From: Candidatus Campbellbacteria bacterium GW2011_OD1_34_28
Lineage (GTDB): Bacteria; Patescibacteriota; Minisyncoccia; Phycocordibacterales; UBA12079
NCBI GenBank assembly: GCA_001029775.1
Contig: CP011215.1
Span: 32,148 to 96,147 of the forward strand
Direction of reading: 5' to 3'
Length of the DNA: 64,000 nt
Translations under genes and position numbers: made by a program
The notes under the pieces: model-generated
Databases searched by the model: none
Seen by the model: only the letters and a program-made list of their open reading frames with translations
Told to the model about the DNA's origin: nothing
Shown: positions 3,070 to 61,003 of the stretch, one piece after another
Numbering within the stretch: position 1 is the first letter of the stretch
How the letters are laid out: each line of letters opens with the position of its first letter

Positions 3070-3101
3070 AAACTAATTTACTAAAAACTAACAACTAGAA
3101 T

Positions 3102-3521: not shown

Positions 3522-3599
3522 TTTATAAGTTTTATGATTTAAGATTTAGAATTTATAAATTTTTTCTTTATAAACTTTCTACTTTATAAACTTTATTAA
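3522..3599. repeat. Tandem CTTTATAAA-like 9-mer array
   Basis: ctttataaa / ctttcta / ctttataaa / ctttattaa at 3566-3599, plus degenerate tttataagt and tttataaat units upstream. Confidence 0.5.
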
Positions 3600-5699: not shown

Positions 5700-5905
5700 G
5701 GTCCATTTTTCAAAAAATTGTGGGTTGCTTCACTTCGTTCGCAAAGACGGATTTTGCGAAGCAAAATCCGTCACCCTCGTCGTCTTCGCGAGGCGAAGCC
5801 GAAGCGATCCACGTCGTTTTTTTTTGGATTCCTGCCTGTCGTGTTGTTGCTTTTCTTTCAGAAAAGAGGCGGGGCAAATTTCCCGCCTAAATCCTAAACC
5901 CTCTT
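5700..5905. repeat. GC-rich hairpin-dense intergenic repeat element, copy 1
   Basis: Perfect hairpin gacggattttgc-gaa-gcaaaatccgtc, the words cgtcttcgcgag and gaagcgatccacgtcg, and the terminal hairpin ggcggggcaaatttcccgcc followed by taaatcctaa. About 55% GC against a genome of about 33%. Confidence 0.6.
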
Positions 5906-6603: not shown

Positions 6604-6720
6604 AAAATAAATATACCAATATACGAATTATGCGAATAAAACGAATAAATACAAATATTAGGAATCGTTATTTGTAACGATTTGTATAATTCGTATCATT
6701 CGTATATTAGTATGTTTATC

Positions 6721-8255: not shown

Positions 8256-8289
8256 ACTAATATACAAATTATACGAATAATACTCTGAA

Positions 8290-8600
8290 TTATACTTGAT
8301 TTTCTGAAGCCCTGCCTCTTCTCTTCCAGGAAAGAGGCAGGGATTCACGAAGTTATTTTGGATTGCTTTGTCGTTTCGTTTCACTCCACTCCTCACAAAG
8401 ACGACGAAGTTGTCGTCTTTGTGAGGAGCTTGCGACGAAGCAATCCACGCCGTCCGTTCGTCGTTCTGGATCGCTTCGCTACCGCTCGCGAAGACGAAGT
8501 TTTGCTCCACAAAACTTCGTGACGAATTTCCGCAGGAAATTCGTCTTTGCGAGCGAAGCGAAGCAATCCACGTCGTTCATTTGTCTTCGTTACTATCGAC
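8290..8600. repeat. GC-rich hairpin-dense intergenic repeat element, copy 2
   Basis: Hairpins ccctgcctct..agaggcaggg, the 17-bp stem ctcctcacaaagacgac-gaagtt-gtcgtctttgtgaggag, gaagttttg..caaaacttc and gacgaatttcc-gcag-ggaaattcgtc, plus the family words gcgaagcaatccacgtcg and tctttgcgag. Confidence 0.6.
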
Positions 8601-11600: not shown

Positions 11601-11869
11601 GAAATTTCGTCTTCGTTTGTGCTATTGGTTGTTAGCTGTCCACTGTCAGCTGTTTCTTCAGCGGAGCTGAAAAAACCCGAGATTGTTCTGTATACATAAA
11701 CAGCCGTCTTTTCAACGGTGTTCAAATTGGAAATATTTTGAACTTCACTCGCTTCAACTTTTTGTAGAAAAAGTAAATTATCATCATTTGCTAGAAAACC
11801 ACCTCCCAACATCAACATAACGGCAAATACGATAAAAAACTGTTTTATAAATTTATCAATAAGATTCAT
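8600..11869 (-). CDS. Giant secreted surface protein 1 (1089 aa), built like a phage tail fibre. Signal anchor, block shared with giant 2, 14-15-aa xNTAxGYxSLxSNTTG repeat array, intramolecular-chaperone (Peptidase S74) domain, coiled coil, DUF5011-type Ig domain, Thr/Pro-rich tail.
   Basis: N-terminal signal MNLIDKFIKQFFIVFAVMLMLGGG. About 20 tandem repeats of the type NAAVGYQSLYSNTTGYLNASFGYKSL. ASSERFKTNINDLTYGLDTVLQLRPVSFNWKSD...IGFIAEEVDLLIPEVI matches the tailspike C-terminal intramolecular-chaperone consensus. ITITGNNPAVVEINSNYIDLGATAVDYQGNSLIVDT...GEYTVTYTAFDG is DUF5011-like. Confidence 0.8.
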   Translation of the reverse strand: MNLIDKFIKQFFIVFAVMLMLGGGFLANDDNLLFLQKVEASEVQNISNLNTVEKTAVYVYRTISGFFSSAEETADSGQLTTNSTNEDEISRGLSSESEADRGEISENVPSVPATPKTTTIVTNPIREIIKETVVERVIQTPGVTLEDLQKLNNELRSEIYKLSSNTNAQITNTYQVISATNDIDNLGGVEIYDSNISTSNVSGTELNFTNGNISNLTIDSAVFDTDTLVIDSVNNRVSIGTTTSENAGAKLSVYGRVSQTGLGGSTYFGYEAGRSDDLTDNYNVGIGYQSLRSNTSGYRNAAVGYQSLYSNTTGYLNASFGYKSLHFNTEGYNNVASGYTSLYSNTTGNNNIASGSYALFSNIGGSRNIASGSMSLYANISGGYNIALGTESLVSNTTGGLNSAVGDMSLYSNTTGASNVGIGDSVLYNNSTGSYNVAIGINSLAYGGSPSRSVGIGYNAGSLVSGSNNIFLGYQAGNNLTTGSNNLVIGYDVDAPSATASNQLNIGNLIFGTGINGTGTTLSSGKIGIGTTSPFAKLSIHANNGETNTTLFNIASSTASATTSLFAVLNNGNVGVGTMSPLGKLSIEKEGQGIGINNAISTPFGDNTNFSSSGMQGIRTTAYHDGNGNINWVYGAFSDARVYGSGDTQEIKGSVNKGTFYGNGDVTTIIGTESSGFAASGLENAGVSNISNIYGMKVAAYGGAMSGSTANIGNIYGIYSEAGSGVWGSSGNVTNAYNIYLNNYENGGASVLANQYQLYIETPNKGSSNNYSIYSQGGTNYFGGNVGIGTTTPWRTLSVNGTAAFTGLTNDGTGYYACISTSGELATSTTACGASSERFKTNINDLTYGLDTVLQLRPVSFNWKSDFINSSSTQIGFIAEEVDLLIPEVIGHDDKGTIMNLDYPKLTSVIVKAMQELINTLDERISNVLASVTELVADKIKARQEICIDDVCINKDQLRSLLENTDTSSNTSSVSANDSEAIQNAIAPVITITGNNPAVVEINSNYIDLGATAVDYQGNSLIVDTHDLDIVDTTIAGEYTVTYTAFDGTNTSTSTRTVLVEDSTAVTTEPATTTDPVVEPTATTTVDSL

Positions 11870-11947: not shown

Positions 11948-12035
11948 GATTTCTTTCTATTTATATAGACCTGTCAATTTTTTAACCAAAAAATCTGACA
12001 AAGACTTTAAATATTCATCGTCATAAACAAAGACA
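11948..12035. repeat. Duplicated fragment of the obg 3' end and its downstream sequence
   Basis: About 85 bp (tatatagacctgtcaattttttaaccaaaaaatctgacaaagactttaaatattcatcgtcataaaca) nearly identical to 18905-18990 (the obg stop-codon region). Lies between giant genes 1 and 2. Confidence 0.7.
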
Positions 12036-12076: not shown

Positions 12077-15000
12077 CTATTGACTATCAACTACCGGTTC
12101 CGTCGTTGTAGCTACAGAATCTAGACTATCGACTATTGCCTCTTCAACAAGTACTATTCTCGTACTTGTTGAAGTCAGTGTTCCATCAAACGCTGTGTAA
12201 GTAACTGTGTATTCTCCTGCTGTTGTTGTGTCTACTGTATCTGCGTCTATTGTATCTACTATTAGAGAGTTTCCTTGATAGTCTACTGCTGTAGCGCCTA
12301 GATCAATATAGTTGCTGTTTATTTCTACTACGGCTGGGTTGTTGCCTGTGATTGTTATTGTGGGAGGAGTGGTGTTTGAAGGTTCTGCTGTTGGCTGTTG
12401 GCTGTTGGCTGTATTAGTGTTATCAACACCCTCTAAAGCATTCAATCTAGCTTCCAATTCATTCAATCTATTTTCAAGACCAGAAACTTTTGCGATCAAT
12501 TCTTGTGTCTTGTTCCAAATTTCCTTAATCGCATTTACCAAAACCGAAGTCAGCTTTGGATAATCAAGGTTCATGATAGTACCTTTGTCGTCGTGTCCGA
12601 TAACTTCGGGAATTAACAAGTCAACTTCTTCTGCGATGAATCCGATTTGAGTAGATGATGAATTAATAAAGTCTGATTTCCAGTTGAAAGATACAGGGCG
12701 TAGTTGAAGGACTGTGTCTAGACCGTATGTTAGATCGTTGATGTTTGTTTTAAATCTTTCTGACGATGCTCCACAAGCGGTTGTTGATGTGGCTAGTTCT
12801 CCTGTTCCAGCGTTGGCACAGACATAATAGCCAGTGCCGTTGTTAGCAAGACTTTGAAACGCTACTGTTCCATCTACGGTTAGTTTGTAATTTGGAGTAG
12901 TTGAACCGATTCCGATGTTGCCGGTTGAGATGGTTGTGCCGTTTCCATCTATACCTGTCCCAAAGATTAGATTTCCAATTGTCATTGTGTTATTACTTGT
13001 TGCCGTTGGTGAATCAATGTTGTAACCAATAACTATGTTGTTGTCTCCCGTTGTTAAGGTCTCTCCAGCCTGATAGCCAAGTAATATATTATTATCTCCT
13101 GTCGTTAAATTAACCCCAGATCGATACCCAATAATAACACCCCCCTGATTGTAGGATACTGTGCTAACACCTTGACCGGCTTGATAACCGATCGCAACAG
13201 TAGAAGTAGCTGATCCATTATATCGATTTGCCTGAGTACCTATTGCCACATTTGAAGAACCTGTTCGATTACTACGAAGAGATTCAGACCCAATTGAAGT
13301 ATTGTAAGTTCCTGTAGTATTTAAAGACAGCGAATCATATCCGAGAGCGCTATTATAATTTCCTGTGGTGTTATTAGTTAAAGAAAAACCGGCGGCCATA
13401 TTATAAGAACCTGTTGTATTTGCACCCATGCTTAAACCTCCAACGGCTGTATTATAAATTCCTGTTGTATTGACATCCAAGGCACCAGCTCCAACCGCGG
13501 TATTATAATAACCTGTAGTATTGGCTTTCAATGCTTGATAGCCTACAGCAGTATTACTACTACTTGTTGTTGCTAAATAAAGTGCTTCGTAACCCAAAGC
13601 GGTGTTATTTAGAGCACCACTCAACAAAGCGTTTCCTGCTCCAATACCGACAGAAACAGAACGACTGGTTGAAGAGGCAAAAAGTATTTTGCTTCCCCCA
13701 ATAGAATATCCTCCATTTGTTGTATCTGTAGAATTAAATGCTGTTGCAGAAATCGATGAGGTTGCTGTTAAACTATTGACGGTTAAATCACCAGATATCC
13801 ACGCACTACCTTCTACACTCAACTTTCTGAAAGGTGAGGTGGTGCCGATGCCCACATTCCCCTTCAAAGCCGTAGTTGTGATACTGTCATTTCCAAGAAC
13901 AACAGAGTTGCTTCCTACTCCTGTGGCATCGTAACCGATTACAATTTCGTTTTGGTCATTGTCAGCAAGGGCTTTGGTGTTGTAGCCTAAGAATGTATTG
14001 TAGTCTCCTGTTGTGTTACCTGTTGAGCCGTTGGCAATGTAGCGACCTGCATTGTATCCAAAGGCTATATTATAATGACCTGTGGAGTTAGCATAGAGAG
14101 AAGAATAACCAACTGCAGTGTTATACATACCCGTAGAGTTGGCATAAAGAGAAGTGTACCCACTTGCAGTGTTGTATCTGCCTGAAGTGTTTGAAAAGAG
14201 AGATTCATAACCACTTGCAGTGTTGTGATAACCGGAGGTGTTGGACTGAAGAGAAGAATATCCAATCGCGGTGTTGTGATAACCGGTGTTGTTGTTATAC
14301 ATAGAGCTACCACCATAAGCAGTATTACGGTAACCTGTGGTATTAAGGTATAAAGTAAAAATTCCACTTGCGGTGTTACCATAACCAGTATTATTGGTGA
14401 AAAGAGCATTAACACCATTTGCAGTGTTAAAGTAACCTAGAGTATTTGCATAAAGAGCACGGTAACCTGTTGCGGTGTTATAACTGCCATGACTTGCGCT
14501 TGTCGCCGTGCTACCCATCGTAAGATTTCCCGCTTCTTCTCCCACAAAAGTATTCTGTCCTGTTGTCGTCACAGTTCCGTTGTTTCCATAATTGAAATTA
14601 TGAATGAAACTTGTTCCGTTTTTTGAGATTACCCCGTATTGATTTGTATTAGTGGTGTTGTCCAAATTCAAATTACCTTGATAGATATCGAGTTTTGCAG
14701 AAGGAGTCATTGTTCCTATTCCTGTATACCCAGAAGGGCCAGCAAAAAAAGAAATGAAATCTTGAACTCCATCGTTTGTTCCTATTAAAACACTATTGGC
14801 AATATTATTATTTAAAGAACCTCCTCCTGATCCACTATAGCCAAAACCTATAGTAATTGATTTCGTCGCCGAAGCCTTCGCTGTGCCTCCTAAAACAACT
14901 GAATACTGACCGGCAGCTGTTGCCCCTCCTTTTCCAAAAACAGAAGAATACTGCCCACTAGCAATACCTGAACCAACAACAATAGACCCTTCACCTGTTG

Positions 15001-18000
15001 CACTACTACTTTCTCCTAATGCTATGGATTTCCATCCACTTGCAGAACCATTAATCATGGAAACATTAACGCCACCAGAAGAGTTAACCTTAAATCCATT
15101 AGACACTTCTAGTTTGGCTGTCGGACTCGCCGTCCCAATGCCCACATTCCCCGTACTCCTATCCACCACCAATTTGTTTGTTCCCACAGCAAAACCACCA
15201 GCAAAAGTAGAAGTTGCTGTTGTTGAAGTTGCGTTGAAATAGTCGGCAACGACATCTCCGACAACGGAAAGTTTTGCGAAAGGTGAGGTGGTGCCGATGC
15301 CGACATTTCCTCCTAAAAACACCCCTGCATAATTGTTGATTGCTCCTGTAGAAGCATTCACCAATAACCCGTAGGCATTTGTTACTACGGCTTGGCTTGT
15401 GCTCACTGGTTTAGTTGGCACAAGAATACTATAAGCATTTGTAATAGAAACATTTGCACTTGTGCTTTTCCAAGGCCATGCGGTGACTAAACTTGCTGCT
15501 TCTGTAACCACTTGATTTGCAGTAGTGCTATACAGTTGCATATTACCCAATTTAGTTCCGTATATTGTATCGTAAGTCGTTGGATCAGAACCAGATAGAG
15601 TTACAAGATGATCACGCAATGTTATTCCCGTAACGCCCGAAGATGTCAATGTGGTGACGGGATTAATATCAAGAAATGATGCAGGGGCGGTAGTATTGAT
15701 TCCTAAATATCCAGATGAATTTATTCTTGCTCTTTCAAATGTATTAGCTGAACTACTTGTTGTCCAAAAACTAAGGTATCCCTGTGCATTTCCACCGGTC
15801 GAATTTTCCTTTGCTCCTTTTATTGAACCAAAAGTCCAAAAACCAGTTGAACCGGAGTATACACCACCCAATCCGATGCTTCCCCCTTTATTAATCGCGT
15901 TTGTATCAGTAGACATTACAAGCATATTACCGGCATATTGGTCATTGCTACCCAATACTAAATCGCTTCCACGTATATCAAGCGTACGCTGTGGGTTTAT
16001 CGTACCAAGGCCCACAACAGGTGTCGCGAGGTTAATATTTGAAGTCAAGCCATTAACAACCAATCCTGAAAACTGAGGAGAATCAGTCGTTCGCAGACTC
16101 TGGCTCAATGAGACATTGCCACCACTAATTGAGAGATTTCTGACAGTTTCATTTTTAATCCAAGTGGTCCCTATATATATTGAATTTGCTAAAGCAATAT
16201 ACCCGGTCGGAGTTAGATGCAAATAATCAGCGAGAGCATACGAGGCAAGAAGGGTGTCAGGATTGGTTGGATCTTCGAGCGCAGAATAAGCATCTATCCT
16301 ATAGTCAACATCGGATGCCATGTTAAGTATCCAATTATTAACATCTTCTAAAACTACCTGACGAGCTTCCGTCCATGAAGTGCTAGTTTTAAACGGAGTA
16401 ATCGTAACAGCCACAACCTTAGATCCGTTGGCGTTAGCCGCAGTGTACATAGCTTGTAAATTACTTTCAATAGTGGCGGCAGATGCGTTTGCTGCTATAT
16501 CATTTATACCTCCCAGGATAATTACATATTCAGCATCGTCAACTACTACATCACCAGAAAAACGCGCTGCCATTTGTGTAGTAGTATTGCCTCCAACGCC
16601 TTTGCTATTCACATTCCATAATGCCCCCAGTAAATCAGCCAATGCACTTCCATAGTTTGTTAAGCTATCACCTATAGCATATACTTGATGAGTTTGAAGA
16701 ATGTTCACTTTATTCAGAGAAATATCTCCGTTTACATCAAACTTCGCTCCCGGACTCTCCGTCCCCACCCCCACATTCCCTGTAGAATAATCAACAACAA
16801 ATTTGTTTGTTCCAACAGCCAAACCTCCTGCAAATGTAGAAGTTGCTGTGGCTGATGTTGCTGTAAAGTAAGGGGCAGAAATTGAACTTGTGGCAGTAAT
16901 TGAATTAGCGGTTAAATCACCACTGATCCACGCATTACCTTCTACACTCAACTTTCTGAAAGGTGAAGTCGTCCCAATCCCAACATTTCCACTTGCTCTC
17001 CAAACATCTGTTCCGTTGGATGTCCAATTACCAACGGCTGAACCTGATAAAAGATTACCACCCCAGTATAAATCATTGGAGATGTTGTAAAGTCTGTCGG
17101 TTGTGATTGATGGAGCTGATATTGGTGCAAGGTATGTTGCTCCGTTTACTGAAAGAGTATCTGAAGGTGTTGTTGATCCGATGCCTACACGGTTGTTGAT
17201 TGAATCGATGTAAAGAGTGTCTGTGTCAAAGATTGTGTCTCCTGATACGGTAAGAGTGTTTAGAGTGGTGTTGCCTGTTACAGTTAGATTGCCAGAGTAT
17301 GTTCCACTGGTTGCAGAAATAGGGCCACCGTATGTAGAGGTAGCTGTGCCTGTGACAGTTAGGTTTTGAATTGTTCCGTTGGTAAAGCTTAGTTCTGTTC
17401 CTGAGACATTTGAGGAACTGATGTTTGAGTCGGTGATTGTGACACTACCCAGATTGTCGATGTTGTTAGTAGCAGAGATTACTTGGTAGGTGTTGGTGAT
17501 TTGAGCATTTGTATTTGAAGAGAGTTTGTAGATTTCACTTCTCAGTTCGTTGTTTAGTTTTTGAAGATCTTCCAGTGTGATGCCGGATGTTTGGATTACT
17601 CTTTCTACAACAACTTCTTTGATTATTTCTCTGATTGGGTTTGTAACGATGGTGGTGGTCTTTGGAGTTGCGGGAACTGAAGGAACATTTTCCGAGATCT
17701 CGCCTCTGTCCGCTTCGCTCTCCGAGGAAAGACCTCGAGAAATTTCGTCTTCGTTTGTGCTATTGGTTGTTAGCTGTCCGCTGTCAGCTTCGTCAACGCT
17801 ATCAGCTGTTGGCTGTAAGCTATCAGCTTCGTTACTAAACAAATTATTAACAAACTTATACCAAACAATCGCAAACTGTTCCACAGGACTTGCTGTTTCG
17901 TAGACTGCTAAAGCTAGGTTGTTTACACCCGTCTTCGCGAACGAAGTGAAGCGACCTGCCTCGCCGGCAGGCAGGTCCATGTCGTCCGTTTTCTGGATTG

Positions 18001-18541
18001 CTTCGTCATAAACTCCTCGCAAAGACGACGAACCAGAGACAATTTTGTTTTTTAATCCATCTAAATAATCTAAAAAGTCTTGTGTATATGTATCTACTGT
18101 TTTTACATTTTTACTGTCTTTTATTTCTTTGATGGGAGAATTGTCATTGCTATCAAGAATTTGTGTTTTGAACAAATCTCTTTTTTCTGCACCAACTTTG
18201 TATGTTATTTCTTTTGTGTTTTTTACCGCAGAAAAAACAGCCTCCCCTGTTTTGTTGAGTTGGTTTAATATGTCTCCTGAAAAGTAACCTGCTCCGATTA
18301 AGAGAATCGCTAAAACAGCCGTTGACAATGCTCTCACTGGCAAAATCATCGGCTTGTTTGTTTTGTTTTTATATTCAAAAAGTTTTTCTAATTCAACAAA
18401 ATATTCCCCTTCTACCTTTGTAAAATCTATCTTTTCTTCACGGCACAGGTCTTTAATATGTTCTTCATCCAATTCTATGATTTTTGTCGCTTTTTTTGTT
18501 GAAAGATACCTTTTGCCATTTAAAAATATCTCACTTTGCAT
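12077..18541 (-). CDS. Giant surface protein 2 (about 2150 aa). N-terminal HTH-like cytoplasmic segment plus TM anchor, block shared with giant 1, repeat arrays, embedded SGNH/GDSL esterase domain, tail-fibre NTA-GY repeats, Peptidase S74 intramolecular chaperone domain, coiled coil, DUF5011 Ig domain.
   Basis: Track ORF is 12077..18589; the preferred start is MQSEIFLNGKRYLS (18541). TM segment LSTAVLAILLIGAGYF. A 110-aa block (ADSGQLTTNSTNEDEISRGL...NAQITNTYQVISATN) is nearly identical to giant 1. The SGNH motifs are AIGDSLT, GGNTT, GINDI and DYLHLT. The C-terminal 230 aa are nearly identical to giant 1. Confidence 0.8.
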   Translation of the reverse strand: MQSEIFLNGKRYLSTKKATKIIELDEEHIKDLCREEKIDFTKVEGEYFVELEKLFEYKNKTNKPMILPVRALSTAVLAILLIGAGYFSGDILNQLNKTGEAVFSAVKNTKEITYKVGAEKRDLFKTQILDSNDNSPIKEIKDSKNVKTVDTYTQDFLDYLDGLKNKIVSGSSSLRGVYDEAIQKTDDMDLPAGEAGRFTSFAKTGVNNLALAVYETASPVEQFAIVWYKFVNNLFSNEADSLQPTADSVDEADSGQLTTNSTNEDEISRGLSSESEADRGEISENVPSVPATPKTTTIVTNPIREIIKEVVVERVIQTSGITLEDLQKLNNELRSEIYKLSSNTNAQITNTYQVISATNNIDNLGSVTITDSNISSSNVSGTELSFTNGTIQNLTVTGTATSTYGGPISATSGTYSGNLTVTGNTTLNTLTVSGDTIFDTDTLYIDSINNRVGIGSTTPSDTLSVNGATYLAPISAPSITTDRLYNISNDLYWGGNLLSGSAVGNWTSNGTDVWRASGNVGIGTTSPFRKLSVEGNAWISGDLTANSITATSSISAPYFTATSATATSTFAGGLAVGTNKFVVDYSTGNVGVGTESPGAKFDVNGDISLNKVNILQTHQVYAIGDSLTNYGSALADLLGALWNVNSKGVGGNTTTQMAARFSGDVVVDDAEYVIILGGINDIAANASAATIESNLQAMYTAANANGSKVVAVTITPFKTSTSWTEARQVVLEDVNNWILNMASDVDYRIDAYSALEDPTNPDTLLASYALADYLHLTPTGYIALANSIYIGTTWIKNETVRNLSISGGNVSLSQSLRTTDSPQFSGLVVNGLTSNINLATPVVGLGTINPQRTLDIRGSDLVLGSNDQYAGNMLVMSTDTNAINKGGSIGLGGVYSGSTGFWTFGSIKGAKENSTGGNAQGYLSFWTTSSSANTFERARINSSGYLGINTTAPASFLDINPVTTLTSSGVTGITLRDHLVTLSGSDPTTYDTIYGTKLGNMQLYSTTANQVVTEAASLVTAWPWKSTSANVSITNAYSILVPTKPVSTSQAVVTNAYGLLVNASTGAINNYAGVFLGGNVGIGTTSPFAKLSVVGDVVADYFNATSTTATSTFAGGFAVGTNKLVVDRSTGNVGIGTASPTAKLEVSNGFKVNSSGGVNVSMINGSASGWKSIALGESSSATGEGSIVVGSGIASGQYSSVFGKGGATAAGQYSVVLGGTAKASATKSITIGFGYSGSGGGSLNNNIANSVLIGTNDGVQDFISFFAGPSGYTGIGTMTPSAKLDIYQGNLNLDNTTNTNQYGVISKNGTSFIHNFNYGNNGTVTTTGQNTFVGEEAGNLTMGSTATSASHGSYNTATGYRALYANTLGYFNTANGVNALFTNNTGYGNTASGIFTLYLNTTGYRNTAYGGSSMYNNNTGYHNTAIGYSSLQSNTSGYHNTASGYESLFSNTSGRYNTASGYTSLYANSTGMYNTAVGYSSLYANSTGHYNIAFGYNAGRYIANGSTGNTTGDYNTFLGYNTKALADNDQNEIVIGYDATGVGSNSVVLGNDSITTTALKGNVGIGTTSPFRKLSVEGSAWISGDLTVNSLTATSSISATAFNSTDTTNGGYSIGGSKILFASSTSRSVSVGIGAGNALLSGALNNTALGYEALYLATTSSSNTAVGYQALKANTTGYYNTAVGAGALDVNTTGIYNTAVGGLSMGANTTGSYNMAAGFSLTNNTTGNYNSALGYDSLSLNTTGTYNTSIGSESLRSNRTGSSNVAIGTQANRYNGSATSTVAIGYQAGQGVSTVSYNQGGVIIGYRSGVNLTTGDNNILLGYQAGETLTTGDNNIVIGYNIDSPTATSNNTMTIGNLIFGTGIDGNGTTISTGNIGIGSTTPNYKLTVDGTVAFQSLANNGTGYYVCANAGTGELATSTTACGASSERFKTNINDLTYGLDTVLQLRPVSFNWKSDFINSSSTQIGFIAEEVDLLIPEVIGHDDKGTIMNLDYPKLTSVLVNAIKEIWNKTQELIAKVSGLENRLNELEARLNALEGVDNTNTANSQQPTAEPSNTTPPTITITGNNPAVVEINSNYIDLGATAVDYQGNSLIVDTIDADTVDTTTAGEYTVTYTAFDGTLTSTSTRIVLVEEAIVDSLDSVATTTEPVVDSQ
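17925..18045. repeat. GC-rich repeat element, copy 3, embedded in-frame inside giant gene 2
   Basis: cttcgcgaacgaagtgaagcgacctgcctcgccggcaggcaggtc...ggattgcttcg...tcgcaaagacgacgaa shares the gacctgcc..ggcaggtc hairpin and family words with copy 4. It is translated as ...DDMDLPAGEAGRFTSFAKTG... with no stop. Confidence 0.55.
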
Positions 18542-18639
18542 ATTTATCTTTAGCCAAATTATACCAATAATTAAGGCTAATTTAAACAAAAAAGGGTGCG
18601 TAAGTGTTGATAAATAAATTGAAGCTTATAGCTCTATAG

Positions 18640-18895
18640 CACAGACGAAAACGAAGCTGACAGCGGACAGTCAATAGCTAACAGCACGGATGATGTGGAT
18701 TGCTTCGCTACGCTCGCAATGACGACGAAGGTGACGGAATTTCGTTTTGCGAAATTCCGTCTTCGCGAGGAGTGAAGCGACCTGCCTCGCCGACAGGCAG
18801 GTCGTTTCACCTTCGGTTCGCAAAGACGGACAAAGGCGGGAAATTTGCTTCGCAAATTTCCCGCCTAAATTCTAATTTCTAATTTCTAAATTCTC
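18640..18895. repeat. GC-rich hairpin-dense intergenic repeat element, copy 4
   Basis: Hairpins gacggaatttcg-tttt-gcgaaattccgtc and gacctgcct-cgccgac-aggcaggtc, the 12-bp stem ggcgggaaattt..aaatttcccgcc, the words ggattgcttcgc, cttcgcgagg and tcgcaaagacgg, and a tail ctaattt x3. Confidence 0.6.
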
Positions 18896-18899
18896 GTCT

Positions 18900-19874
18900 T
18901 TATTTATATAGCTCTGTCAATTTTTTAACCAAAAAATCTGACAAAGACTTTAAAGATTCATCGTCATAAACAGAAACAGAGACAACATCTTCACAATATT
19001 TTCTCAATTTTTCTTCCGCCTTTTTTGTTGTCTTGCTGTCAACCAAATCAGTCTTTGTCAAAATAATAATCTCGGATTTTTCAGCCAATTCTGGATCAAA
19101 TTTTTTCAATTCATTTTTAATTGTTTTATATGCTTTTACAACATCTTCATTTTCAAGAGAAATACAGTGCAAAAGAAGTTTTGTCCTTTTTATATGTCTT
19201 AAAAACTTGTGTCCCAAACCTTTTCCCTCTGATGCCCCTTCTATAAGCCCCGGAATATCCGCCAAAATATATTTGTACAATTCTCCCAAATTTGGTTCCA
19301 ATGTTGTAAAAGGATAAGCTCCCACTTTTGCATTTGCACGAGTTAATTCGTTAAGCAAAGAAGATTTTCCAGCACTTGGCAAACCGATAAGACCAGCGTC
19401 CGCAATCAATTCTAGCTCAATAAAAAATTCTGCGTCTTCGCCTTTTTTCCCCTCCGTAGATTCTACTGGGCTAGTATTTTTTGAACCCTTAAAATTTTCA
19501 TTTCCCAAACCGCCGTGACCTCCTTTCAAAACCAAAATATTCTCTCCCTCCTTAATCAATTCAAATTTTTCATCAGTTATCAAATTTTTTACAATAGAAC
19601 CAATAGGCAAATCAATAAACAAATCATCACCATTTTTTCCATGCATACTATTTTTCTCTCCATTTCCTCCGTTTTCCGCAGTAAACTTTTTATTTTTTGT
19701 GTAACGAGAAAGAACCTCTATATCTCTAATTGCACGAATATAGACATCGGCACCTTTTCCGCCATTGCCCCCAGCAGGACCCATAAGAGGTTTGTATTTT
19801 TCTCTTCTCCATCTAACAACACCGTCTCCCCCTTTTCCGGCTCTGGCATAAATTTTTAGTTCATCTATTAACAT
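18900..19874 (-). CDS. obg: GTPase Obg/CgtA
   Basis: The Obg fold Gly-rich N-domain (KIYARAGKGGDGVVRWRREKY...GGNGGKGADVYI) followed by a G-domain with GLPSAGKSSLLN, DIPGLIEGA and LTKTDL. The start is chosen at MLIDELKIY (19874); the track ORF extends 12 codons further. Confidence 0.85.
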   Translation of the reverse strand: MLIDELKIYARAGKGGDGVVRWRREKYKPLMGPAGGNGGKGADVYIRAIRDIEVLSRYTKNKKFTAENGGNGEKNSMHGKNGDDLFIDLPIGSIVKNLITDEKFELIKEGENILVLKGGHGGLGNENFKGSKNTSPVESTEGKKGEDAEFFIELELIADAGLIGLPSAGKSSLLNELTRANAKVGAYPFTTLEPNLGELYKYILADIPGLIEGASEGKGLGHKFLRHIKRTKLLLHCISLENEDVVKAYKTIKNELKKFDPELAEKSEIIILTKTDLVDSKTTKKAEEKLRKYCEDVVSVSVYDDESLKSLSDFLVKKLTELYK

Positions 19875-36874: not shown

Positions 36875-38509
36875 TTATTCCAAAAACAATCTCGCGACTC
36901 TTATCTCGTCAAAACCAAAATCATCACCCAAAATTTCTTTAACTGGGGTCAATTTTTTGTCCTTTGTTTTTTTGAATGCTTTTAATATCTTTTCTAATCT
37001 ATTTTTTTCAAAACCTTTTTTAATATAATCAATATCAATCTTTTCACCAGATTCAAGTAGCTTTTCAATATGGCCGACAATTGTTTCTTTGGTTACCTCT
37101 CTTTTATCTGCTATTTCTTGTAAAGAATTTTTTTCATCTATCAACAGTTTTGTTTTTTCGTAGGTTGAAAGACTCTCTTGTTTTTCTTCTTTTGTTGGAC
37201 TAACAAGATCCAAAAAAGTTTCTTGAATTTTTTTGACTTCATTTTCAGAAAAACTGCTCAACTCGTCAACAGCCTTTTCAGAAAACAATAATAATTTTTT
37301 ATCTAATTCAGAAACTTCTTTGTTGATCCTTAGGGCAATATCATTCAAACCCATCAGTCTCAAACCTTCTATTTTTTTTACACGAGAAAGAGCCACATAC
37401 CCCATTCCCTCAACAAAAGATTTTGATAAATCAATTTCTGCACAGTCCAAACTCATTCCCTGACTTTTATGAATCGTAATTGCCCACGCCAAACGCAAAG
37501 GAATTTGTTTTAATTCTGCTTTTATTTTTCCATCTTCATCAATTACCCAAGATTCTTCTTCTACCTCGATTATCCTTCCGTCGTATGTTTTAACAATCGG
37601 CAATCCTCCGGCGCTAAAATCTATGACTTTGCCGAGTGTTCCATTTACATACTTCTTGATGGGATTATTTTTTAAAAACATAACAACAGCACCTTTTTTC
37701 AACCTCAATTCTTCTTGTGCCAAACAGCTCTTTTTCAATGTCTCTACCAATTTTCTATTACCTTTGGTATGCATTTCAAAAATCTTTAGGGAACCTTCTA
37801 TCAAATCCAGCTGTTGATTGTTTATGATATCAATATCAGCATTATGTGTGTAAAGTTTTGTAGGAACTATTTCCGAATTAATTTGTTTTTTATACCGAAG
37901 TCTCAAAGGAGCCAACACATTTTCTCCTGCATTATCTTGCCTGATATTATTCAAAATATTTGTCAGAGTATCACAATCTTGACGATATTGTTCATCAAGA
38001 TAACAAACCTTCAAATCCATATCATTCCAAACATTTGCCTTATTTATAAAACAAAATCCTTCATTGTTTTTACTTATCGGAGGCAGTTGAAAAAAATCTC
38101 CAGACAAAATAACTTGCATTCCACCAAAAGGAAAATCTTTTTGTCTAAAAGCTCTGCAAACTTTGTCTATCAAATCCAAACGATAATGATGCAACATAGA
38201 CACCTCGTCTATTATCAAAACTTTTGTATTTTGAAATCTTTTTGCTAGATGACTTTTTTGTAAAAGAGAATCCATCTCCCATTCATTTAAATCATCGTTT
38301 ATTCCTATCCCTGCCCAAGAATGAATTGTCATCCCGCCCAGATGAGTAGAAGCAATCCCAGTTGATGCCGTTACCGCTACACTAACATCATTTTCTTTCA
38401 AAAAATTTATATATTCATTAAGGAGATATGTTTTTCCACTACCAGCAGCACCCGTTAAATAAACATTGTGACCCATTTTTAAGATTTCTAGTGCCTCTTT
38501 TTGTTTCAT
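36875..38509 (-). CDS. ATP-dependent DNA helicase, PIF1/RecD family, with a C-terminal HTH-containing domain
   Basis: Walker A LTGAAGSGKTYLL, Walker B LIIDEVSM, the PIF1 signature region, and a C-terminal SH3/UvrD_C-like part. The last 100 aa or so look like a wHTH. Confidence 0.75.
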   Translation of the reverse strand: MKQKEALEILKMGHNVYLTGAAGSGKTYLLNEYINFLKENDVSVAVTASTGIASTHLGGMTIHSWAGIGINDDLNEWEMDSLLQKSHLAKRFQNTKVLIIDEVSMLHHYRLDLIDKVCRAFRQKDFPFGGMQVILSGDFFQLPPISKNNEGFCFINKANVWNDMDLKVCYLDEQYRQDCDTLTNILNNIRQDNAGENVLAPLRLRYKKQINSEIVPTKLYTHNADIDIINNQQLDLIEGSLKIFEMHTKGNRKLVETLKKSCLAQEELRLKKGAVVMFLKNNPIKKYVNGTLGKVIDFSAGGLPIVKTYDGRIIEVEEESWVIDEDGKIKAELKQIPLRLAWAITIHKSQGMSLDCAEIDLSKSFVEGMGYVALSRVKKIEGLRLMGLNDIALRINKEVSELDKKLLLFSEKAVDELSSFSENEVKKIQETFLDLVSPTKEEKQESLSTYEKTKLLIDEKNSLQEIADKREVTKETIVGHIEKLLESGEKIDIDYIKKGFEKNRLEKILKAFKKTKDKKLTPVKEILGDDFGFDEIRVARLFLE

Positions 38510-38514
38510 AAAAG

Positions 38515-38556
38515 TAAGTATAAAGTTAAAAGTTTATAAAGTCTATAAAGTTATTT
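38515..38556. repeat. Tandem TATAAAG(T) 9-mer-like array (minus-strand orientation CTTTATAGA / CTTTATAAA) directly upstream of the helicase start
   Basis: gtataaagttaaaagtttataaagtctataaagtta; the reverse complement carries 3 CTTTATAxA units. Confidence 0.45.
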
Positions 38557-38564
38557 AAATTAAA

Positions 38565-41204: not shown

Positions 41205-41440
41205 GCTTAAATTTTCTCTCAAAAAATTAAAAGTGCTATCGCTCGCGAAGAGAAACGAGGACATCGTGGATCGCGTCGCTTCGCTCGCGAAGACGAATTT
41301 TCTGAAAGAAAATTCGTTGACGAAGTTGGGCTTTGCCCAACTTTGTCTTTGCGAGCCTTGGCGAAGCAATCCACGTCGTCGTTCGTCTTTGCGAGCCTTG
41401 GCGAAGCAATCCAGTTTCGTAATTCAAAGTTCTTTTATTA
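41205..41440. repeat. GC-rich hairpin-dense intergenic repeat element, copy 5
   Basis: Hairpins gacgaattttct-gaaa-gaaaattcgt and gaagttgggc-tttg-cccaacttt. A tandem direct repeat tcgtctttgcgagccttggcgaagcaatcca x2. The words ctcgcgaag and gcgaagcaatccacgtcg. Confidence 0.6.
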
Positions 41441-42539: not shown

Positions 42540-42540
42540 A

Positions 42541-42578
42541 CTTTATGAACTTTATAACTTTACAAACTTTATAAACTT
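42541..42578. repeat. Tandem CTTTATAAA-like 9-mer array
   Basis: ctttatgaa ctttataa ctttacaaa ctttataaa, immediately beside the terminator. Confidence 0.5.
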
Positions 42579-42579
42579 C

Positions 42580-44760
42580 TTACGGTCTTCTCCCTGCCCT
42601 AATTTCACTTATATAAAATTCTCCTTGTTCTTTAAACTCTGGATTTATCTCAATTGCTTTTTGCAAAACCTCTATAGACTTTTCTCGATTGCCAATATCA
42701 AGATAGCTGGCAGCCAAAGACAAATAATTTTGTAACTCGTTAGGTCTATTTTCAACGGCAAATTCCAAAATCTTTATCAGTTTTGAATATTGTTTTGTAT
42801 CATAATAAGCTTGAATTATTCTTGGGTTGTCTACTAGAACGGTTCCAAAAGTTTCCATCAAAATTCCATCTGCCAATTCTTGGTCTCCTAGACGAATAGC
42901 ATTTGCAGCATAATAAGCGGCTGCATCCTTAAAGCTCTTGTCCAATTCATAAGCTTGTTTGTAATAAACCAAAGCCTCTTCGCTCTTTTCTTGCAACTGC
43001 AAAACAGTTCCCGTCATAAACAAAATTGATTGTTTGTTTGGGGACAACTCACTCGCTCTCATAAAATGGGGCAAGGAATCATCATATGCACCAAAGCTAG
43101 ATAGCAATGTTCCCGCAATAACTTCTGTTCTTGCATTGTTTGGATCTCTTTCAATTTCTTTTAACATTTCTGCAAAAGCAAAATCGGCAACTCCTTGTTT
43201 GATTTCTGTAGTAGTGTCGGCAGATGCAACTTGAATTGCAAATTGTGCTAACTGTTCACGAACCTCTTGATTTCCAAAAGATTCATAAGACAAAGATTTT
43301 TGATAATTCTCCAAGTTAACATTTATATTTCCTTGTGGTCGCAATGCTTCCAATAGATGATAAGCCGTAAAAAATCCTTTTGTATTTACAAAATAAATTG
43401 AACCAAACATAACAACAACAATTACAGGCATTGCAACAAAATATTTTTTGTCACCAATCACTTTCTCATAATTAAACAAAATCCTTCCAGAATTTAAATT
43501 GTGCAAATAAGCAAGTAACGAGAAAAACAAAATATAACTGATCAGGTTATCAAACACAAAGAAATTGTGAATAAAATATCCTGCAAGCAATCCAATCAAA
43601 ATTGCTTTTTCTATCAGAGAGAAATGAGAATTTTTATCTCTAATCAAATAATACAAAATTGCAAAAAACAAAGACAGATATCCAATCAATCCCAAAATAC
43701 CACCCGCAATCAACCAATCAAAGAAAACATTGTGAGTTCTATCAAACCATTGCTCTTGATCATACATTCCGGGGTCATAATACTTGTTGAATACATAGTT
43801 AAAGTTTTCCTGTCCCCAACCCAATATAGGTCTTTCTTTAAAACCTTGAAATGCCATATCCCAAACCAAAAAACGAGATTTGGTTGTTGTTTCTTGCAAA
43901 GAGATATTGGCAAATCTATTCAACACAGGACTATTCTGAACAAAACTACTATCTTTCACCAAAATAAAACCTCCAACAAACAAAACCAAAGCAACTAATA
44001 CTCCCATAGCTATTTTCTTCAATTTTAAATTTTCTTTTTCAAACAAAGAAATTATAATCGCCGATATCATCAATCCCACAAGCAATCCCAAAATTGCTCC
44101 TCTAGTAGCGGTGTAATACAAAATCACTGTTTCCAAAACAATTACCAAACCGTACAGATAAGAAATCATATTCAAACCTTTTCTTTTTGCCAACATAAAG
44201 ATCGTCAAGAAAATATGCACGAGCAAATAAACGGCAAAGTAAGCCGAGTTTCCAAATGTTGCATCAAGACGAACACCTCCTTGGTGAACTTCTAATACTC
44301 CCAGCAACTGCATAACCCCGTAAAGAGAAAGACCAACACTGGCAACAATAGATGTATTCAAAAATCTTGCCCAAAGTTTTGAAGATGTCAAAACGCTTCC
44401 GACAACAACCAAATATCCAAAAAGGTGAACCAAAGTTACCCAACCCTCCATTCTTTCAAAATTACTCCAAATACTTTTCAAAGGATTTACTCCCATAAAA
44501 TCTGAAAGTCCAATCAAAGCAACAAAAATTGCCGAAAAAACCAATATCAGAGAATTCTTTAATCTGTACTCAGGATTGCGAAGTGAAAGAATCAGCCATA
44601 ACCCGATCATTATCTCTACCAAAATTCTAAAAACAAAAGCTTTTCCTGTTATAAAAGGAAAAAACAAATTTCCATAAACAACGAAAGGAATAAAAGGAAC
44701 TAAAAATATCGCCGTGAATAAAATGTATTTAAGTATATTATCTATTTTTGCCAAATTCAT
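42580..44760 (-). CDS. O-antigen ligase / Wzy-like polytopic membrane protein fused to C-terminal TPR repeats
   Basis: 726 aa. About 12 TM helices with a Wzy_C-like periplasmic loop, then a soluble domain of about 250 aa with TPR-like repeats (YYKQAYELDKSFKDAAAYYAANAIRLGDQE...). Confidence 0.65.
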   Translation of the reverse strand: MNLAKIDNILKYILFTAIFLVPFIPFVVYGNLFFPFITGKAFVFRILVEIMIGLWLILSLRNPEYRLKNSLILVFSAIFVALIGLSDFMGVNPLKSIWSNFERMEGWVTLVHLFGYLVVVGSVLTSSKLWARFLNTSIVASVGLSLYGVMQLLGVLEVHQGGVRLDATFGNSAYFAVYLLVHIFLTIFMLAKRKGLNMISYLYGLVIVLETVILYYTATRGAILGLLVGLMISAIIISLFEKENLKLKKIAMGVLVALVLFVGGFILVKDSSFVQNSPVLNRFANISLQETTTKSRFLVWDMAFQGFKERPILGWGQENFNYVFNKYYDPGMYDQEQWFDRTHNVFFDWLIAGGILGLIGYLSLFFAILYYLIRDKNSHFSLIEKAILIGLLAGYFIHNFFVFDNLISYILFFSLLAYLHNLNSGRILFNYEKVIGDKKYFVAMPVIVVVMFGSIYFVNTKGFFTAYHLLEALRPQGNINVNLENYQKSLSYESFGNQEVREQLAQFAIQVASADTTTEIKQGVADFAFAEMLKEIERDPNNARTEVIAGTLLSSFGAYDDSLPHFMRASELSPNKQSILFMTGTVLQLQEKSEEALVYYKQAYELDKSFKDAAAYYAANAIRLGDQELADGILMETFGTVLVDNPRIIQAYYDTKQYSKLIKILEFAVENRPNELQNYLSLAASYLDIGNREKSIEVLQKAIEINPEFKEQGEFYISEIRAGRRP

Positions 44761-58806: not shown

Positions 58807-59841
58807 TTAAAAATGAGTTTTTATTTTCTTTATCAAATTAACAACAGAATAATTTTCTCTTACAAAATCACTTAATTCCTTTTTATTATTATACCCCTCT
58901 TTCAAAATTGAAAAGATCTTATCTGCCAACTCGTTCTTATCATCATTTTTTAAGATAAGTTTGTCATCTCTCAAAATATTCACAAATGTTTTATTGAGAG
59001 CAATTGCCGGCGTTCCGCAAAGCAATGATTCCAACACTACCTTGTCTAATCCCCCCGTCGGGGCAAGATTTATACTAAATCCTGACTCATAATAATATAG
59101 ATGTATAAAATTGTTTGGAACACTCCCAATAAAAATTATATTGTTTTCCAAACCCTTATTGTCAACAAAATCTTTAACACTCTTATAATAACCATTATCA
59201 AAATCGGAAAAACCTCCTACCAATGCAACTTTTAAATCGCGTACACCTTTTTCGTTAACCAAGACATCAACTGCTTCAACCAAAAGTTTTTGATTTTTTA
59301 TTGGAGATATTCTACCAACACAAACAGCTGTATATTTTCTTTGTTCTACATTTTTATATTGATATTTATCTACATCTATACCATGACCTACTATTTTCAA
59401 CTTTTTGCTTCTTAGCAGAAAGCTTTCTTTTGATGCAGAAAAAATTACATTCGTGATTTTTTCAGCGATTCTTAATTTAAGATCAATATTTTTATGGGTG
59501 TACCACAAAGCAAGTCTGTTTCCTCTCAACCTCCAAAACAAACCGCCTAAAACAACATAAATAGGATTCATGTGGACAAATACACGGTCATATTCATTGC
59601 GATTTTTCCAAATATATTTATAGAAACGAAAAAAAGCTCTTAGCTTATAGCTTATAGCTGATAGCTCGTCTTTGCCTAAAGACAATACTTTTACATTGTT
59701 AGGTAAATTGTGTTCCCCCTCGTAAAGACAGATCACTGTTACCTTTTCATAATTCTTGGCAAATTCAATAACCCACTGGTGAAAAAAACCGAGAACATCA
59801 TCATGTTTATCTATTTTCTGCGTAATTATAAGCAAATTCAT
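58807..59841 (-). CDS. Glycosyltransferase family 4
   Basis: 344 aa. GLDKVVLESLLCGTPAIA. Contains an imperfect heptamer tract. Confidence 0.7.
   Translation of the reverse strand: MNLLIITQKIDKHDDVLGFFHQWVIEFAKNYEKVTVICLYEGEHNLPNNVKVLSLGKDELSAISYKLRAFFRFYKYIWKNRNEYDRVFVHMNPIYVVLGGLFWRLRGNRLALWYTHKNIDLKLRIAEKITNVIFSASKESFLLRSKKLKIVGHGIDVDKYQYKNVEQRKYTAVCVGRISPIKNQKLLVEAVDVLVNEKGVRDLKVALVGGFSDFDNGYYKSVKDFVDNKGLENNIIFIGSVPNNFIHLYYYESGFSINLAPTGGLDKVVLESLLCGTPAIALNKTFVNILRDDKLILKNDDKNELADKIFSILKEGYNNKKELSDFVRENYSVVNLIKKIKTHF
59635..59669. repeat. Imperfect heptanucleotide tandem tract (AGCTNNT x5) inside a glycosyltransferase gene
   Basis: agctctt agcttat agcttat agctgat agctcgt; encodes ...DELSAISYKLRA... 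Confidence 0.6.
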
Positions 59842-59845
59842 ATTT

Positions 59846-61003
59846 TTACTTTAAACAACTCTCCCAATCTTCTTTCATTTTATTCAAATACTCTTGTTTG
59901 TCTTTTATAACATTTTCTTCAATTCTTTTTCTGGCTTTAATGGACATATCACACAAAAGCAATTTATCCTTCAAAAGTTTTTTAATTTCTGCGACAAAAC
60001 AATCTTTATCACCTGTCTTACATACTTTTATATCCCCTTCTTTTAACACACCGCCTACCAAACCAACATCAGTTGTCAGAATAGGACATCCCGATGCAGA
60101 GGCTTCTATCAAAGACATCCCGTAACCCTCGTAGTTAGAAGTGAACAAAAACAAATCGGCTGTTTTGTAATAAGAAAACAAATCTTTTTGCCATCCTTCG
60201 AAGATTATACTAGCTGATAGCTTATAGCCGATAGCTGATAGCTCTAGTTTTCTTTTCAAAGATCCGTCGCCTACAATAACAAGTCCTGCTTTGGGATGTT
60301 TCTTAATAATTTTCTTCATTACTTTTATAGCCATAGAAATATTCTTCTCTTTTTCTAAACGACAAGTCATCAAAATAATAAAATCAAATTGAGGATATTT
60401 TTTGTGCAAATCAAAGGCGGGTATTTTATTTTCGTAATTTTTAATATCAACAAAAATTGGCAAAACAATTGGTTCAGTTTTTAGTTTATAGTTTTTAGTT
60501 TTTAGAGACTGACTTATTCGCTCGCTAACTACCCTCACCCCATCGGCTTTTGGTAATAAAAATTTTGCCAAACAAACTCTGACACGATTTAAGAAAGATT
60601 CTTTTATAAAATATTTACTCAAAAAATCAGTGTGTATTTGTAAGTGCAATTTTGCACCTGTTTTTTTCGCAATCCACCAACCTACAAAACCAGTTTCAAA
60701 AACGTCCTGAGTCGTAACCAGATTACCTTCTACTTTCCACTCTCTACTTTCAAAAATTTCTTTAGAAATTTTTATTGCATCAAAAATATAAAACCAACGA
60801 TTTCTGGAATTTGTTGGATATAAAGTAACATTGGTCCCTAAAATCCTTTCTACTTGATACTTACTACTTGCTACTCTTGTCGACGAATTGAATATCACAA
60901 TATTTAGTTCGTCGACAAGTTTGCCATACTGAACAACCCTCTGTCGAACGGCAGAATCCCTCTCAAGAATCTTTCTATCTGTTGAAATCATTAAAATTTT
61001 CAT
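59846..61003 (-). CDS. Glycosyltransferase family 4
   Basis: 385 aa. GMSLIEASASGCPILTTDVGLVGGVL. Contains three distinct heptamer tracts. Confidence 0.7.
   Translation of the reverse strand: MKILMISTDRKILERDSAVRQRVVQYGKLVDELNIVIFNSSTRVASSKYQVERILGTNVTLYPTNSRNRWFYIFDAIKISKEIFESREWKVEGNLVTTQDVFETGFVGWWIAKKTGAKLHLQIHTDFLSKYFIKESFLNRVRVCLAKFLLPKADGVRVVSERISQSLKTKNYKLKTEPIVLPIFVDIKNYENKIPAFDLHKKYPQFDFIILMTCRLEKEKNISMAIKVMKKIIKKHPKAGLVIVGDGSLKRKLELSAIGYKLSASIIFEGWQKDLFSYYKTADLFLFTSNYEGYGMSLIEASASGCPILTTDVGLVGGVLKEGDIKVCKTGDKDCFVAEIKKLLKDKLLLCDMSIKARKRIEENVIKDKQEYLNKMKEDWESCLK
60211..60247. repeat. Imperfect heptanucleotide tandem tract (TAGCTNA x5) inside a glycosyltransferase gene
   Basis: tagctga tagctta tagccga tagctga tagctct; encodes ...LELSAIGYKLSAS.... 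Other tracts in the same gene are TTTTTAG x4 (60478-60505) and TACTTNN x4 (60851-60878). Confidence 0.6.

Follow-up and report, generated by a model that had tools for sequence, protein, structure and literature searches.

The stretch of DNA analyzed here (the window; 64,000 nt, positions 32,148 to 96,147 of contig CP011215.1 from Candidatus Campbellbacteria bacterium GW2011_OD1_34_28, a tiny bacterium of groundwater that belongs to the Patescibacteria/CPR) carries two adjacent glycosyltransferase genes, named GT-A and GT-B in this work, which contain short tandem arrays of imperfect 7-nt units. An earlier note on the same DNA had listed four such tracts and considered for them inserted repeat modules, slipped-strand phase variation, mobile-element footprints and recombination hot spots. 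In this work we have analyzed the arrays of the window and of orthologous loci, showing that the tracts form part of a class of translated heptanucleotide arrays, about 30 nt long, that is found across the lineage and, in low-GC Patescibacteria, lies mostly inside genes. The 7-nt period resides in the DNA, in line with the view of the earlier note that the tracts are not inherited sequence. The arrays are translated, and strains differ by discrete reassorting alleles.

Two glycosyltransferase genes with five heptanucleotide arrays

The genes and their arrays are given below; sites A, B, C and D denote the array positions in GT-B.

58807-59841, minus strand: GT-A, open reading frame (ORF) for a GT4 glycosyltransferase of 344 amino acids (aa) with Pfam Glycos_transf_1 at residues 165-320; hosts one array
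59635-59669, minus strand: GT-A array, coding strand GAGCTATC AGCTATA AGCTATA AGCTAAG AGCT; encodes ELSAISYKLRA
59846-61003, minus strand: GT-B, gene for a GT4 retaining glycosyltransferase of 385 aa with a BshA/MshA-like fold; hosts four arrays
60211-60247, minus strand: site A array, (AGCTATC)-type; encodes ELSAIGYKLSAS, residues 253-265, C-domain
60476-60505, minus strand: site B array, (CTAAAAA)x4.3; encodes LKTKNYKLKT, residues 167-176
60724-60755, minus strand: site D degenerate array, (AGTRGAR)x3.5; residues 84-93
60846-60878, minus strand: site C array, (AGTAGNA)x4.3; encodes RVASSKYQV, residues 42-51

The two genes are separated by 4 nt and both match Pfam Glycos_transf_1 (E-values of 8e-34 and 1e-16). 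The AlphaFold (AF2) model of GT-B has a predicted local distance difference test score (pLDDT) of 90.5, and the top Foldseek matches of this model are the retaining GT4 enzymes BshA and MshA (E about 1e-20). The two-Rossmann fold, the Glycos_transf_1 C-domain and the E-x7-E region place the host genes in the GT4 family. AKM83795 / DCZ46_00445 has the same sequence as the GT-B protein (100% identity), which is found on contigs of up to 1.44 Mb. About 60 syntenic orthologues of GT-A are positioned downstream of GT-B.

Several relatives carry variants of this gene arrangement. In the strain L082, otherwise 92-96% identical, a gene for a 127-aa PDDEXK_3 protein (2407-2790 of that locus), absent from the window, lies between the GT-B and GT-A orthologues. 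In two other species GT-B and GT-A are fused as one ORF of 718-736 aa (L003, 3001-5211; L041, 3001-5157); the interdomain linker in the GT-A part holds an (AATTTTC)x4.3 array in the first and a (GATTCAN)n array in the second. In a Kaiserbacteria locus (L064, 2257-2420) the glycosyltransferase upstream of GT-B begins with a duplicated segment of 27 aa, NQTQTNTDHSSESP(D/H)VASAISN, which is a coding repeat of triplet period, in contrast to the heptamer arrays.

All four tracts listed in the earlier note are present at the coordinates given there. On the plus strand their units read AGCTCTT AGCTTAT AGCTTAT AGCTGAT AGCTCGT in GT-A (59635-59669), TAGCTGA TAGCTTA TAGCCGA TAGCTGA TAGCTCT at site A (60211-60245), TTTTTAG TTTATAG TTTTTAG TTTTTAG at site B (60478-60505) and TACTTGA TACTTAC TACTTGC TACTCTT at site C (60851-60878). 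Tandem Repeats Finder assigned period 7 to each of them, with 3.7-4.7 copies and 78-94% matches. The peptides given for the first two, ELSAISYKLRA and ELSAIGYKLSAS, are also correct. The fifth array, at site D, had been missed; its coding strand reads AGTAGAG AGTGGAA AGTAGAA, and its position is exactly where relatives have strong arrays: a perfect (ATTGGAA)x4.4, (ATTGAAA)n or (ATTAAAA)n.

The GT-A array corresponds to residues 58-69 in the N-domain, in the loop that follows the strand VKVLSLGK, and the site A array to residues 253-265 in the C-domain of GT-B, so that the two do lie at non-homologous positions, as the earlier note had held. The AF2 model of GT-B predicts helix 250-259 and the loop preceding strand 266-269 at site A, the end of helix 161-170 and the interdomain linker at site B, a disordered loop at site C (pLDDT <50 at residues 44-48), and the end of helix 69-86 with the adjoining loop at site D.

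Excess of period 7 over chance

The motif AGCT(T/G)ATAGCT, described in the earlier note as common to the tracts, was matched 11 times in the window with at most one mismatch (AGCTKATAGCT) against 1.05 expected, the maximum in 100 shuffles being 5. All of these matches lie inside heptamer arrays, in GT-A, in GT-B, at 17797-17828 or at 18623-18633. When the window was scanned for tandem periods, with shuffle controls that kept local composition, four period-7 arrays scored at least 13 compared with none in 30 dinucleotide shuffles, and none of the other periods from 4 to 15 reached this score. At a laxer threshold period 7 gave five arrays in the window (0.13 in shuffles), and, apart from period 7, the shuffles were exceeded solely at multiples of three (9, 15). 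A further 36 period-7 arrays were found in 528 kb around the GT-B orthologues of 80 other Patescibacteria species, with at most six arrays of any other period and about none in shuffles. Over the window and these 528 kb, period 7 is the sole enriched period not divisible by three. The heptamer arrays concentrate in loci of <45% GC.

Arrays are translated and kept open

Of the arrays of at least 22 nt, 75 of 84 (89%) lie within open frames of at least 120 aa. Coding DNA is therefore not depleted of them, an unusual finding for a repeat whose unit is no multiple of three. The predominantly intergenic location described for cyanobacteria and Xanthomonas does not hold for these arrays. The orthologous arrays found are all in frame.

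Selection maintains the open frame through the arrays, and an odd unit typically is one that disrupts a potential stop. A perfect version of the consensus would hold one in-frame stop in 23 of 57 coding arrays; these 23 codons make up 4% of the in-frame codons and contain 25 of the 93 deviations from perfection. The stop-breaking deviation is the sole deviation in nine arrays, including the GT-A array and site B of the window; at site B the lone odd unit, CTATAAA instead of CTAAAAA, turns an in-frame TAA into TAT. Some deviation breaking the stop is expected because open frames were chosen, but its frequency as the sole deviation is not explained in this way. The units are cyclically stop-free on the coding strand in 34 of 57 arrays, compared with 10 of 57 for their reverse complements.

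Arrays recur at fixed sites of orthologous proteins

The arrays lie inside conserved enzymes, and orthologous alignments therefore supply a fixed coordinate system. When the arrays of 76 GT-B orthologues (30-54% identity) were projected onto the window protein, 27 of the 29 in-gene arrays fell into four short segments, residues 38-58 (site C), 83-93 (site D), 167-181 (site B) and 251-265 (site A), which comprise 62 of the 385 residues. The binomial p for this clustering is 1e-19, and 4e-14 when placement is restricted to the 40% most variable positions. An array is present at site A in 10 other species and at site C in six. One apparent peculiarity, many GT-B orthologues split at site B by an insert of about 450 bp, was rejected, as the tblastn matches concerned began in an upstream paralogous glycosyltransferase.

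The GT-A loop reads SLGKEkGvSKikY in the consensus of the approximately 60 syntenic orthologues. The window protein is 3 aa longer, with about nine residues overwritten, and in other lineages the loop is extended by +3 to +14 aa. Different heptamer arrays or insertions occupy this same loop, and also the interdomain linker of GT-A, in other lineages. Recurrence is thus seen, in orthologues of 30-84% identity, at four surface sites of GT-B and two of GT-A, and the arrays are limited to a few surface loops and helix ends tolerant of arbitrary sequence.

The earlier proposal of inserted modules fits part of the tracts. The GT-A array is a lineage-specific one that both lengthens and overwrites the loop, and the array of a sister strain is 18 nt longer. 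At sites A and B of GT-B, the window length equals that of most homologues, many of which have a heptamer array of their own there; because of this equal length, these two arrays are not net insertions.

Turnover of units between strains

The close relatives L082, L083 and L085 (73-84% protein identity) and near-identical strains (L091 and JGI contigs) were compared with the window. Their units are as follows.

Site A: (GCTATCA)n in the window, (ACTAAAA)n in L082, (GTTTACA)n in L083, no array in L085
Site B: (CTAAAAA)n in the window, (CTATCGA)n in L082, the third unit CTATAAA being kept in both
Site D: degenerate in the window, ATTGGAA in L082, ATTAAAA in L083, ATTGAAA and ATTAGAA in other genomes

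The versions of site A are constant in register and length, and their downstream flank is about 95% identical. At site B (CTATCGA)n occurs in L082 and L091 in the register of the window, and at site D the variants are distinguished by substitutions at one or two positions, repeated in each unit. At each of these three sites a new unit replaces the old one in all copies together, with no shift in register or length.

Between the window and L091, strongly divergent patches in GT-A and GT-B occur only at arrays (59617-59686, 60472-60539 and 60680-60776); between the window and L082 they include 60205-60371, 60472-60552 and 60688-76. The flanks of these patches are 95-99% identical. In GT-A of L091 the window unit is replaced by (AAATTGG)x4+, an alternative allele 18 nt longer (+9 aa relative to the family consensus), whose unit is also that of GT-B site D in L091. 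This (AAATTGG)n allele is present in 4/5 members of the GT-A 90% cluster, which are otherwise about 99% identical; cluster members differ by replacement of the whole array, not by ±7 nt.

The alleles are also mixed between strains. L091 has site A as in the window together with sites B and D of the L082 type, and L083 has a window-type site B. Such reassortment speaks for homologous recombination within the conserved stretches that separate the arrays. The idea of a recombination hot spot or hypervariable region, voiced in the earlier note, fits these data, the arrays coinciding with the divergent, reassorting patches. An assembly artefact was rejected, since the same arrays, with the genes in frame, are found in independent ENA, JGI, NCBI and Logan assemblies.

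Unit families, array length and GC-rich hairpin repeats

Units are shared within genomes. Array pairs whose units differ at no more than 1 nt, in any rotation and on either strand, make up 21-25% within a locus and 8-9% between species (p<0.001), and the sharing persists after matching of unit GC content. The GT-A array and GT-B site A agree at about 29/33 nt, site A is 90% complementary to 17798-17828, and sites C and D have AGTAGNA in common. The lengths of the arrays show a mode of 30-33 nt, with almost none above 33 nt, in coding and non-coding DNA alike; a typical array has about 30 nt and about 4.5 units.

The window contains further arrays and a hairpin cluster, given below.

3064-3100, no strand assigned: intergenic (CTAAAAA)-type array, of the unit family of GT-B site B
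12387-12412, minus strand: perfect (AGCCAAC)x3.7 array in the linker of a giant ORF
17757-17833, minus strand: long degenerate array with units of the AGCTGAT/AGCNNAC family, within the 2170-aa ORF 12077-18589; inverted copy of 18650-18687
18621-18687, no strand assigned: intergenic AGCTTAT/AGCTGAC-type heptamers adjoining the GC-rich hairpin cluster, with an array at 18650-18687
18692-18864, no strand assigned: GC-rich hairpin cluster, GGATTGCTTCGCT..GCTCGCAATGACG; GACCTGCCTCGCCGACAGGCAGGTC; GCGGGAAATTTGCTTCGCAAATTTCCCGC; heptamer arrays on either side
18865-18894, no strand assigned: intergenic (CTAAATT)x4.3 array, immediately following the GC-rich cluster

The AGCTKAT family is thus present at four window loci (GT-A, GT-B site A, 17798-17828 and 18621-18687). 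Two loci carry the CTAAAAA family, the site B array being complementary to the intergenic array 3064-3100. The motif that the earlier note had seen next to a GC-rich repeat at 18621-18640 is real.

The GC-rich cluster belongs to a dispersed hairpin family with copies in the window at 5720-5826, 8412-8585, 8921-8956, 17929-18029, 18692-18864 and 41265-41413. Its sequences include …CGTCTTTGCGAG…GAAGCAATCCA…, GACCTGCC…GGCAGGTC, …CGTCTTTGCGAGCGAAGCGAAGCAATCCAC…, GACCTGCCTCGCCGGCAGGCAGGTC and GCGGGAAATTTGC-TTC-GCAAATTTCCCGC. The family is GC-rich in a genome of 28-43% GC, and several copies lie within ORFs and are translated; in homologues the translated repeats give peptides such as AGRQVAS and RHCELCSVAEECGNPAS. 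Rfam at the gathering threshold gave no match in the window, the hairpin family included, and 17600-19000 gave only chance-level miRNA hits.

Hairpins and arrays are associated at homologues and at other window loci, and the five arrays of GT-A and GT-B carry no hairpin. At site C, homologues have in-frame insertions of GC-rich elements; in L092 a composite of array, hairpins and array, with an architecture like that of window 18621-18894, is inserted there in frame and translated. At site D of L007 a 16-nt hairpin lies within the array, and register is restored on removing 19 nt. GC-rich inserts at array sites also occur in L024 (site D) and L003 (site A). In the window, the same linker of two paralogous giant ORFs holds a GC-rich repeat (8921-8956) in one and the (AGCCAAC)n array in the other.

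Origin of the arrays

We infer, with a probability of about 0.55, that the arrays are born and homogenized by slipped mispairing or short-patch conversion, that deletion sets their length cap and that recombination reshuffles them. Slipped-strand mispairing, or short-patch conversion among neighbouring units, would both create the arrays and keep their units alike; loss would be efficient above about 33 nt, hence the cap; and homologous recombination in conserved flanks would shuffle the alleles among strains. The GT-A and GT-B arrays would then be neutral or nearly neutral hypervariable linker cassettes, not on/off switches, and small GC-rich hairpin repeats may preferentially land in arrays.

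Several points weigh against this model. No ±7-nt variant was observed, so that slippage is deduced solely from the concerted pattern. Since the slip of one unit throws the gene out of frame, homogenization by slippage needs null intermediates or a hypothetical conversion route. Local slippage alone leaves the sharing of units among sites of one genome unexplained, arrays with different units and flanks offer no homology for ordinary gene conversion, and a sharp length mode of 30-33 nt is unusual among slippage-driven repeats. At the same site, units of distant species are similar (at most one mismatch) in 13% vs 6% of comparisons, a trend only (p=0.13 on the criterion of at most two mismatches), and long persistence is therefore inseparable from repeated birth at one loop. 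Residues 186-200 and 320-385 of GT-B are equally variable yet almost free of arrays, so that the clustering exceeds what variability predicts.

The main rival is a dedicated agent that makes or spreads the arrays, which could be components, footprints or attachment sites of the GC-rich hairpin repeats or products of a repeat-writing enzyme as yet unknown. Heptamer modules of about 30 nt would be written or pasted into permissive sites, with a unit repertoire private to each genome. We regard this as possible, with odds clearly lower than those of slippage or conversion. It explains the sharing of units and the fixed size better than slippage does: units are common to non-homologous sites of one genome without flank homology, GT-A and site D of GT-B in L091 have an identical 32-nt module, AAATTGGAAATTGG..., and the module size is narrow (30-33 nt). 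The composites of array, hairpin and array at window 18621-18894 and, translated, in L092, the hairpin within the L007 array with the register restored by removing 19 nt, and the paralogous linkers holding either an array or a GC-rich repeat point in the same direction. The arrays of GT-A and GT-B themselves, however, have no hairpin, and hairpin or cruciform folding of the four listed tracts was no better than that of shuffles (z from -0.8 to +0.4). The insert in the GT-A loop varies in size, sites A and B of GT-B show no net length change, and neither 7-bp target-site duplication logic nor a candidate enzyme was identified. The variants of site D, which differ by single bases in all units, resemble gradual concerted drift. 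With no hairpin potential and no constant insert size, the tracts do not themselves look like a mobile element.

A bolder form of this idea, which we consider doubtful, is an active process of writing or module replacement in low-GC Patescibacteria, and perhaps in cyanobacteria and Xanthomonas, that places about 4.5 copies (about 31 nt) of a genome-specific unit at defined permissive positions, some of them within essential-looking genes. If it existed, an enzyme or template system not yet described, and not passive slippage, would produce the arrays; glycosyltransferases and giant surface proteins would carry hypervariable, reassorting peptide cassettes, which would be landing pads for the GC-rich mini-hairpins.

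Slipped-strand phase variation, by which the tracts would act as contingency loci toggling surface-glycan glycosyltransferases, is improbable. Gain or loss of one 7-nt unit within the ORF would indeed cause a frameshift, the host genes are of the surface-polysaccharide GT4 type, several arrays lie in one gene, and the arrays evolve fast. But the arrays are short (3.7-4.7 units) and imperfect, the orthologous ones are all in frame, and arrays of the same kind occur in intergenic DNA and in the linkers of giant ORFs. The exact GT-B protein is found on at least 24 contigs from different samples, and its 90% cluster contains one sequence. A flank-anchored scan of JGI metagenomes for the site A tract gave six contigs with three allele types of one common length, in three of which the window-type tract is intact next to two single-nucleotide polymorphisms directly downstream. 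No ±7-nt length variants or frameshifted alleles were seen in the assemblies, a small sample of assemblies, not of reads, in which rare variants are possible. In view of this lack of copy-number variation, phase variation, raised in the earlier note, is unsupported.

That the periodicity results from selection for a repeated or amphipathic peptide, or from chance in AT-rich DNA, can be practically dismissed: although three 7-nt units equal one 7-residue heptad suited to surface helices, and xxYKLxx-like peptides occur at site B in many homologues, a 7-nt period cannot come from peptide selection because 7 = 2x3+1 and successive units are read in all three frames, no peptide repeat needs a 7-nt DNA period, the array peptides differ widely among species, identical arrays occur in non-coding DNA, composition-preserving shuffles give about no arrays, and period 7 alone is enriched among non-multiples of three.

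Two further candidates were rejected. The variable region of a diversity-generating retroelement was set aside informally, in view of the tandem layout of the arrays, of substitutions that are not specific to adenine (AAA<->TCG) and of the absence of a template-repeat/variable-repeat pair. Programmed ribosomal frameshift heptamers do not apply, as the X XXY YYZ pattern is missing from most units.

Relation to known repeat systems

Heptanucleotide repeats have been known in cyanobacteria since 1990 and in bacteria generally since 2007, with no accepted origin or role. The STRR heptanucleotide repeats of cyanobacteria were reportedly described by Mazel et al. in 1990 (summarized in PMC4692102), and Elhai et al., in a 2008 work cited in PMC3116915, reportedly found that the small dispersed repeats (SDR) of Nostoc insert in heptamer arrays. 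The arrays described here are STRR-like simple sequence repeats (SSRs) of 7 nt by their tandem excess, their dispersed unit families and their association with hairpins. STRRs share with these arrays tandem 7-nt units and several unit families dispersed per genome; the window unit CAACAGC is near the STRR3 unit, CAACAGT; and small GC-rich hairpins inside or beside arrays, here at homologues and other window loci, resemble the SDRs. Unlike STRRs, the present arrays occur in a Patescibacterium whose genome is small and low in GC; 89% of them are in ORFs and translated, they recur at orthologous protein sites across species, and they are capped at about 33 nt, whereas cyanobacterial arrays reach tens of units.

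PMC4692102 reports an excess of heptamer repeats in bacteria (Mrazek, Guo & Shah 2007) with a proposed origin by polymerase slippage. Xanthomonas heptamer arrays (GGGAATC) typically have four units (PMC4692102). These general prokaryotic heptamer SSRs agree with the present arrays in the prominence of period 7 among long units, in having about four units, in varying in length and sequence among close relatives and in the slippage origin proposed. They are described as intergenic, and as G-rich and quadruplex-forming in Xanthomonas and Nostoc, whereas the arrays studied here are A/T-rich, coding, in frame and stop-edited.

In-frame selfish repeats in protein-coding genes are exemplified by the Rickettsia palindromic elements (RPE; PMC10969869). 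As with RPEs, repeat DNA is tolerated and translated at permissive sites of functional genes, and the GC-rich hairpin repeats of this lineage behave so. RPEs are palindromes of about 100-150 bp with a conserved peptide, whereas the heptamer arrays are about 30 nt long, non-palindromic and without a conserved peptide, and often replace rather than add sequence. The contingency loci of Haemophilus, Neisseria and Campylobacter are similar in having non-triplet tandem repeats in ORFs of surface-glycan glycosyltransferases; unlike them, the present arrays are short and imperfect, showed no copy-number polymorphism or frameshifted alleles in the assemblies, and occur also in many non-switch contexts.

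A literature search found no published reports of heptamer arrays in Patescibacteria, nor of heptamer arrays that are mostly coding, position-conserved and replaced in register. The fixed coordinates of the host enzymes reveal a persistent site and length, joint change of all units, stop-only editing and private unit repertoires, which are quantitative constraints for any mechanism, be it slippage, conversion or an active writer. In this uncultivated lineage the surface-glycan genes vary most between strains where the arrays lie, and the odd low-complexity peptides of the arrays (SYKLSAIS, NWKLEIGN, FSIFNFQ) can mislead annotation and alignment.

Other repeats in the window

The giant paralogous ORFs on the minus strand, 8600-11869 (1089 aa) and 12077-18589 (2170 aa), have blocks of 86-92% identity in common and contain internal coding repeats of 51 nt at 13285-14360 and 10803-10990. 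Each is followed by a 78-nt segment (11958-12035 and 18901-18978), 94% identical between the copies.

Intergenic period-9 repeats of CTTTATAAA / ACTTTATAA lie at 3552-3601, 38509-38564 and 42540-42578; the copies 38525-38554 and 42554-42583 are 87% mutually complementary and may represent a common operator or promoter motif. At 6603-6723, in the intergenic region upstream of ORF 5908-6603, there is a 55-nt inverted repeat (80% complementary, 11-nt spacer) of ATTCGTAT-like 8-9-mers, with a related copy at 8252-8283.

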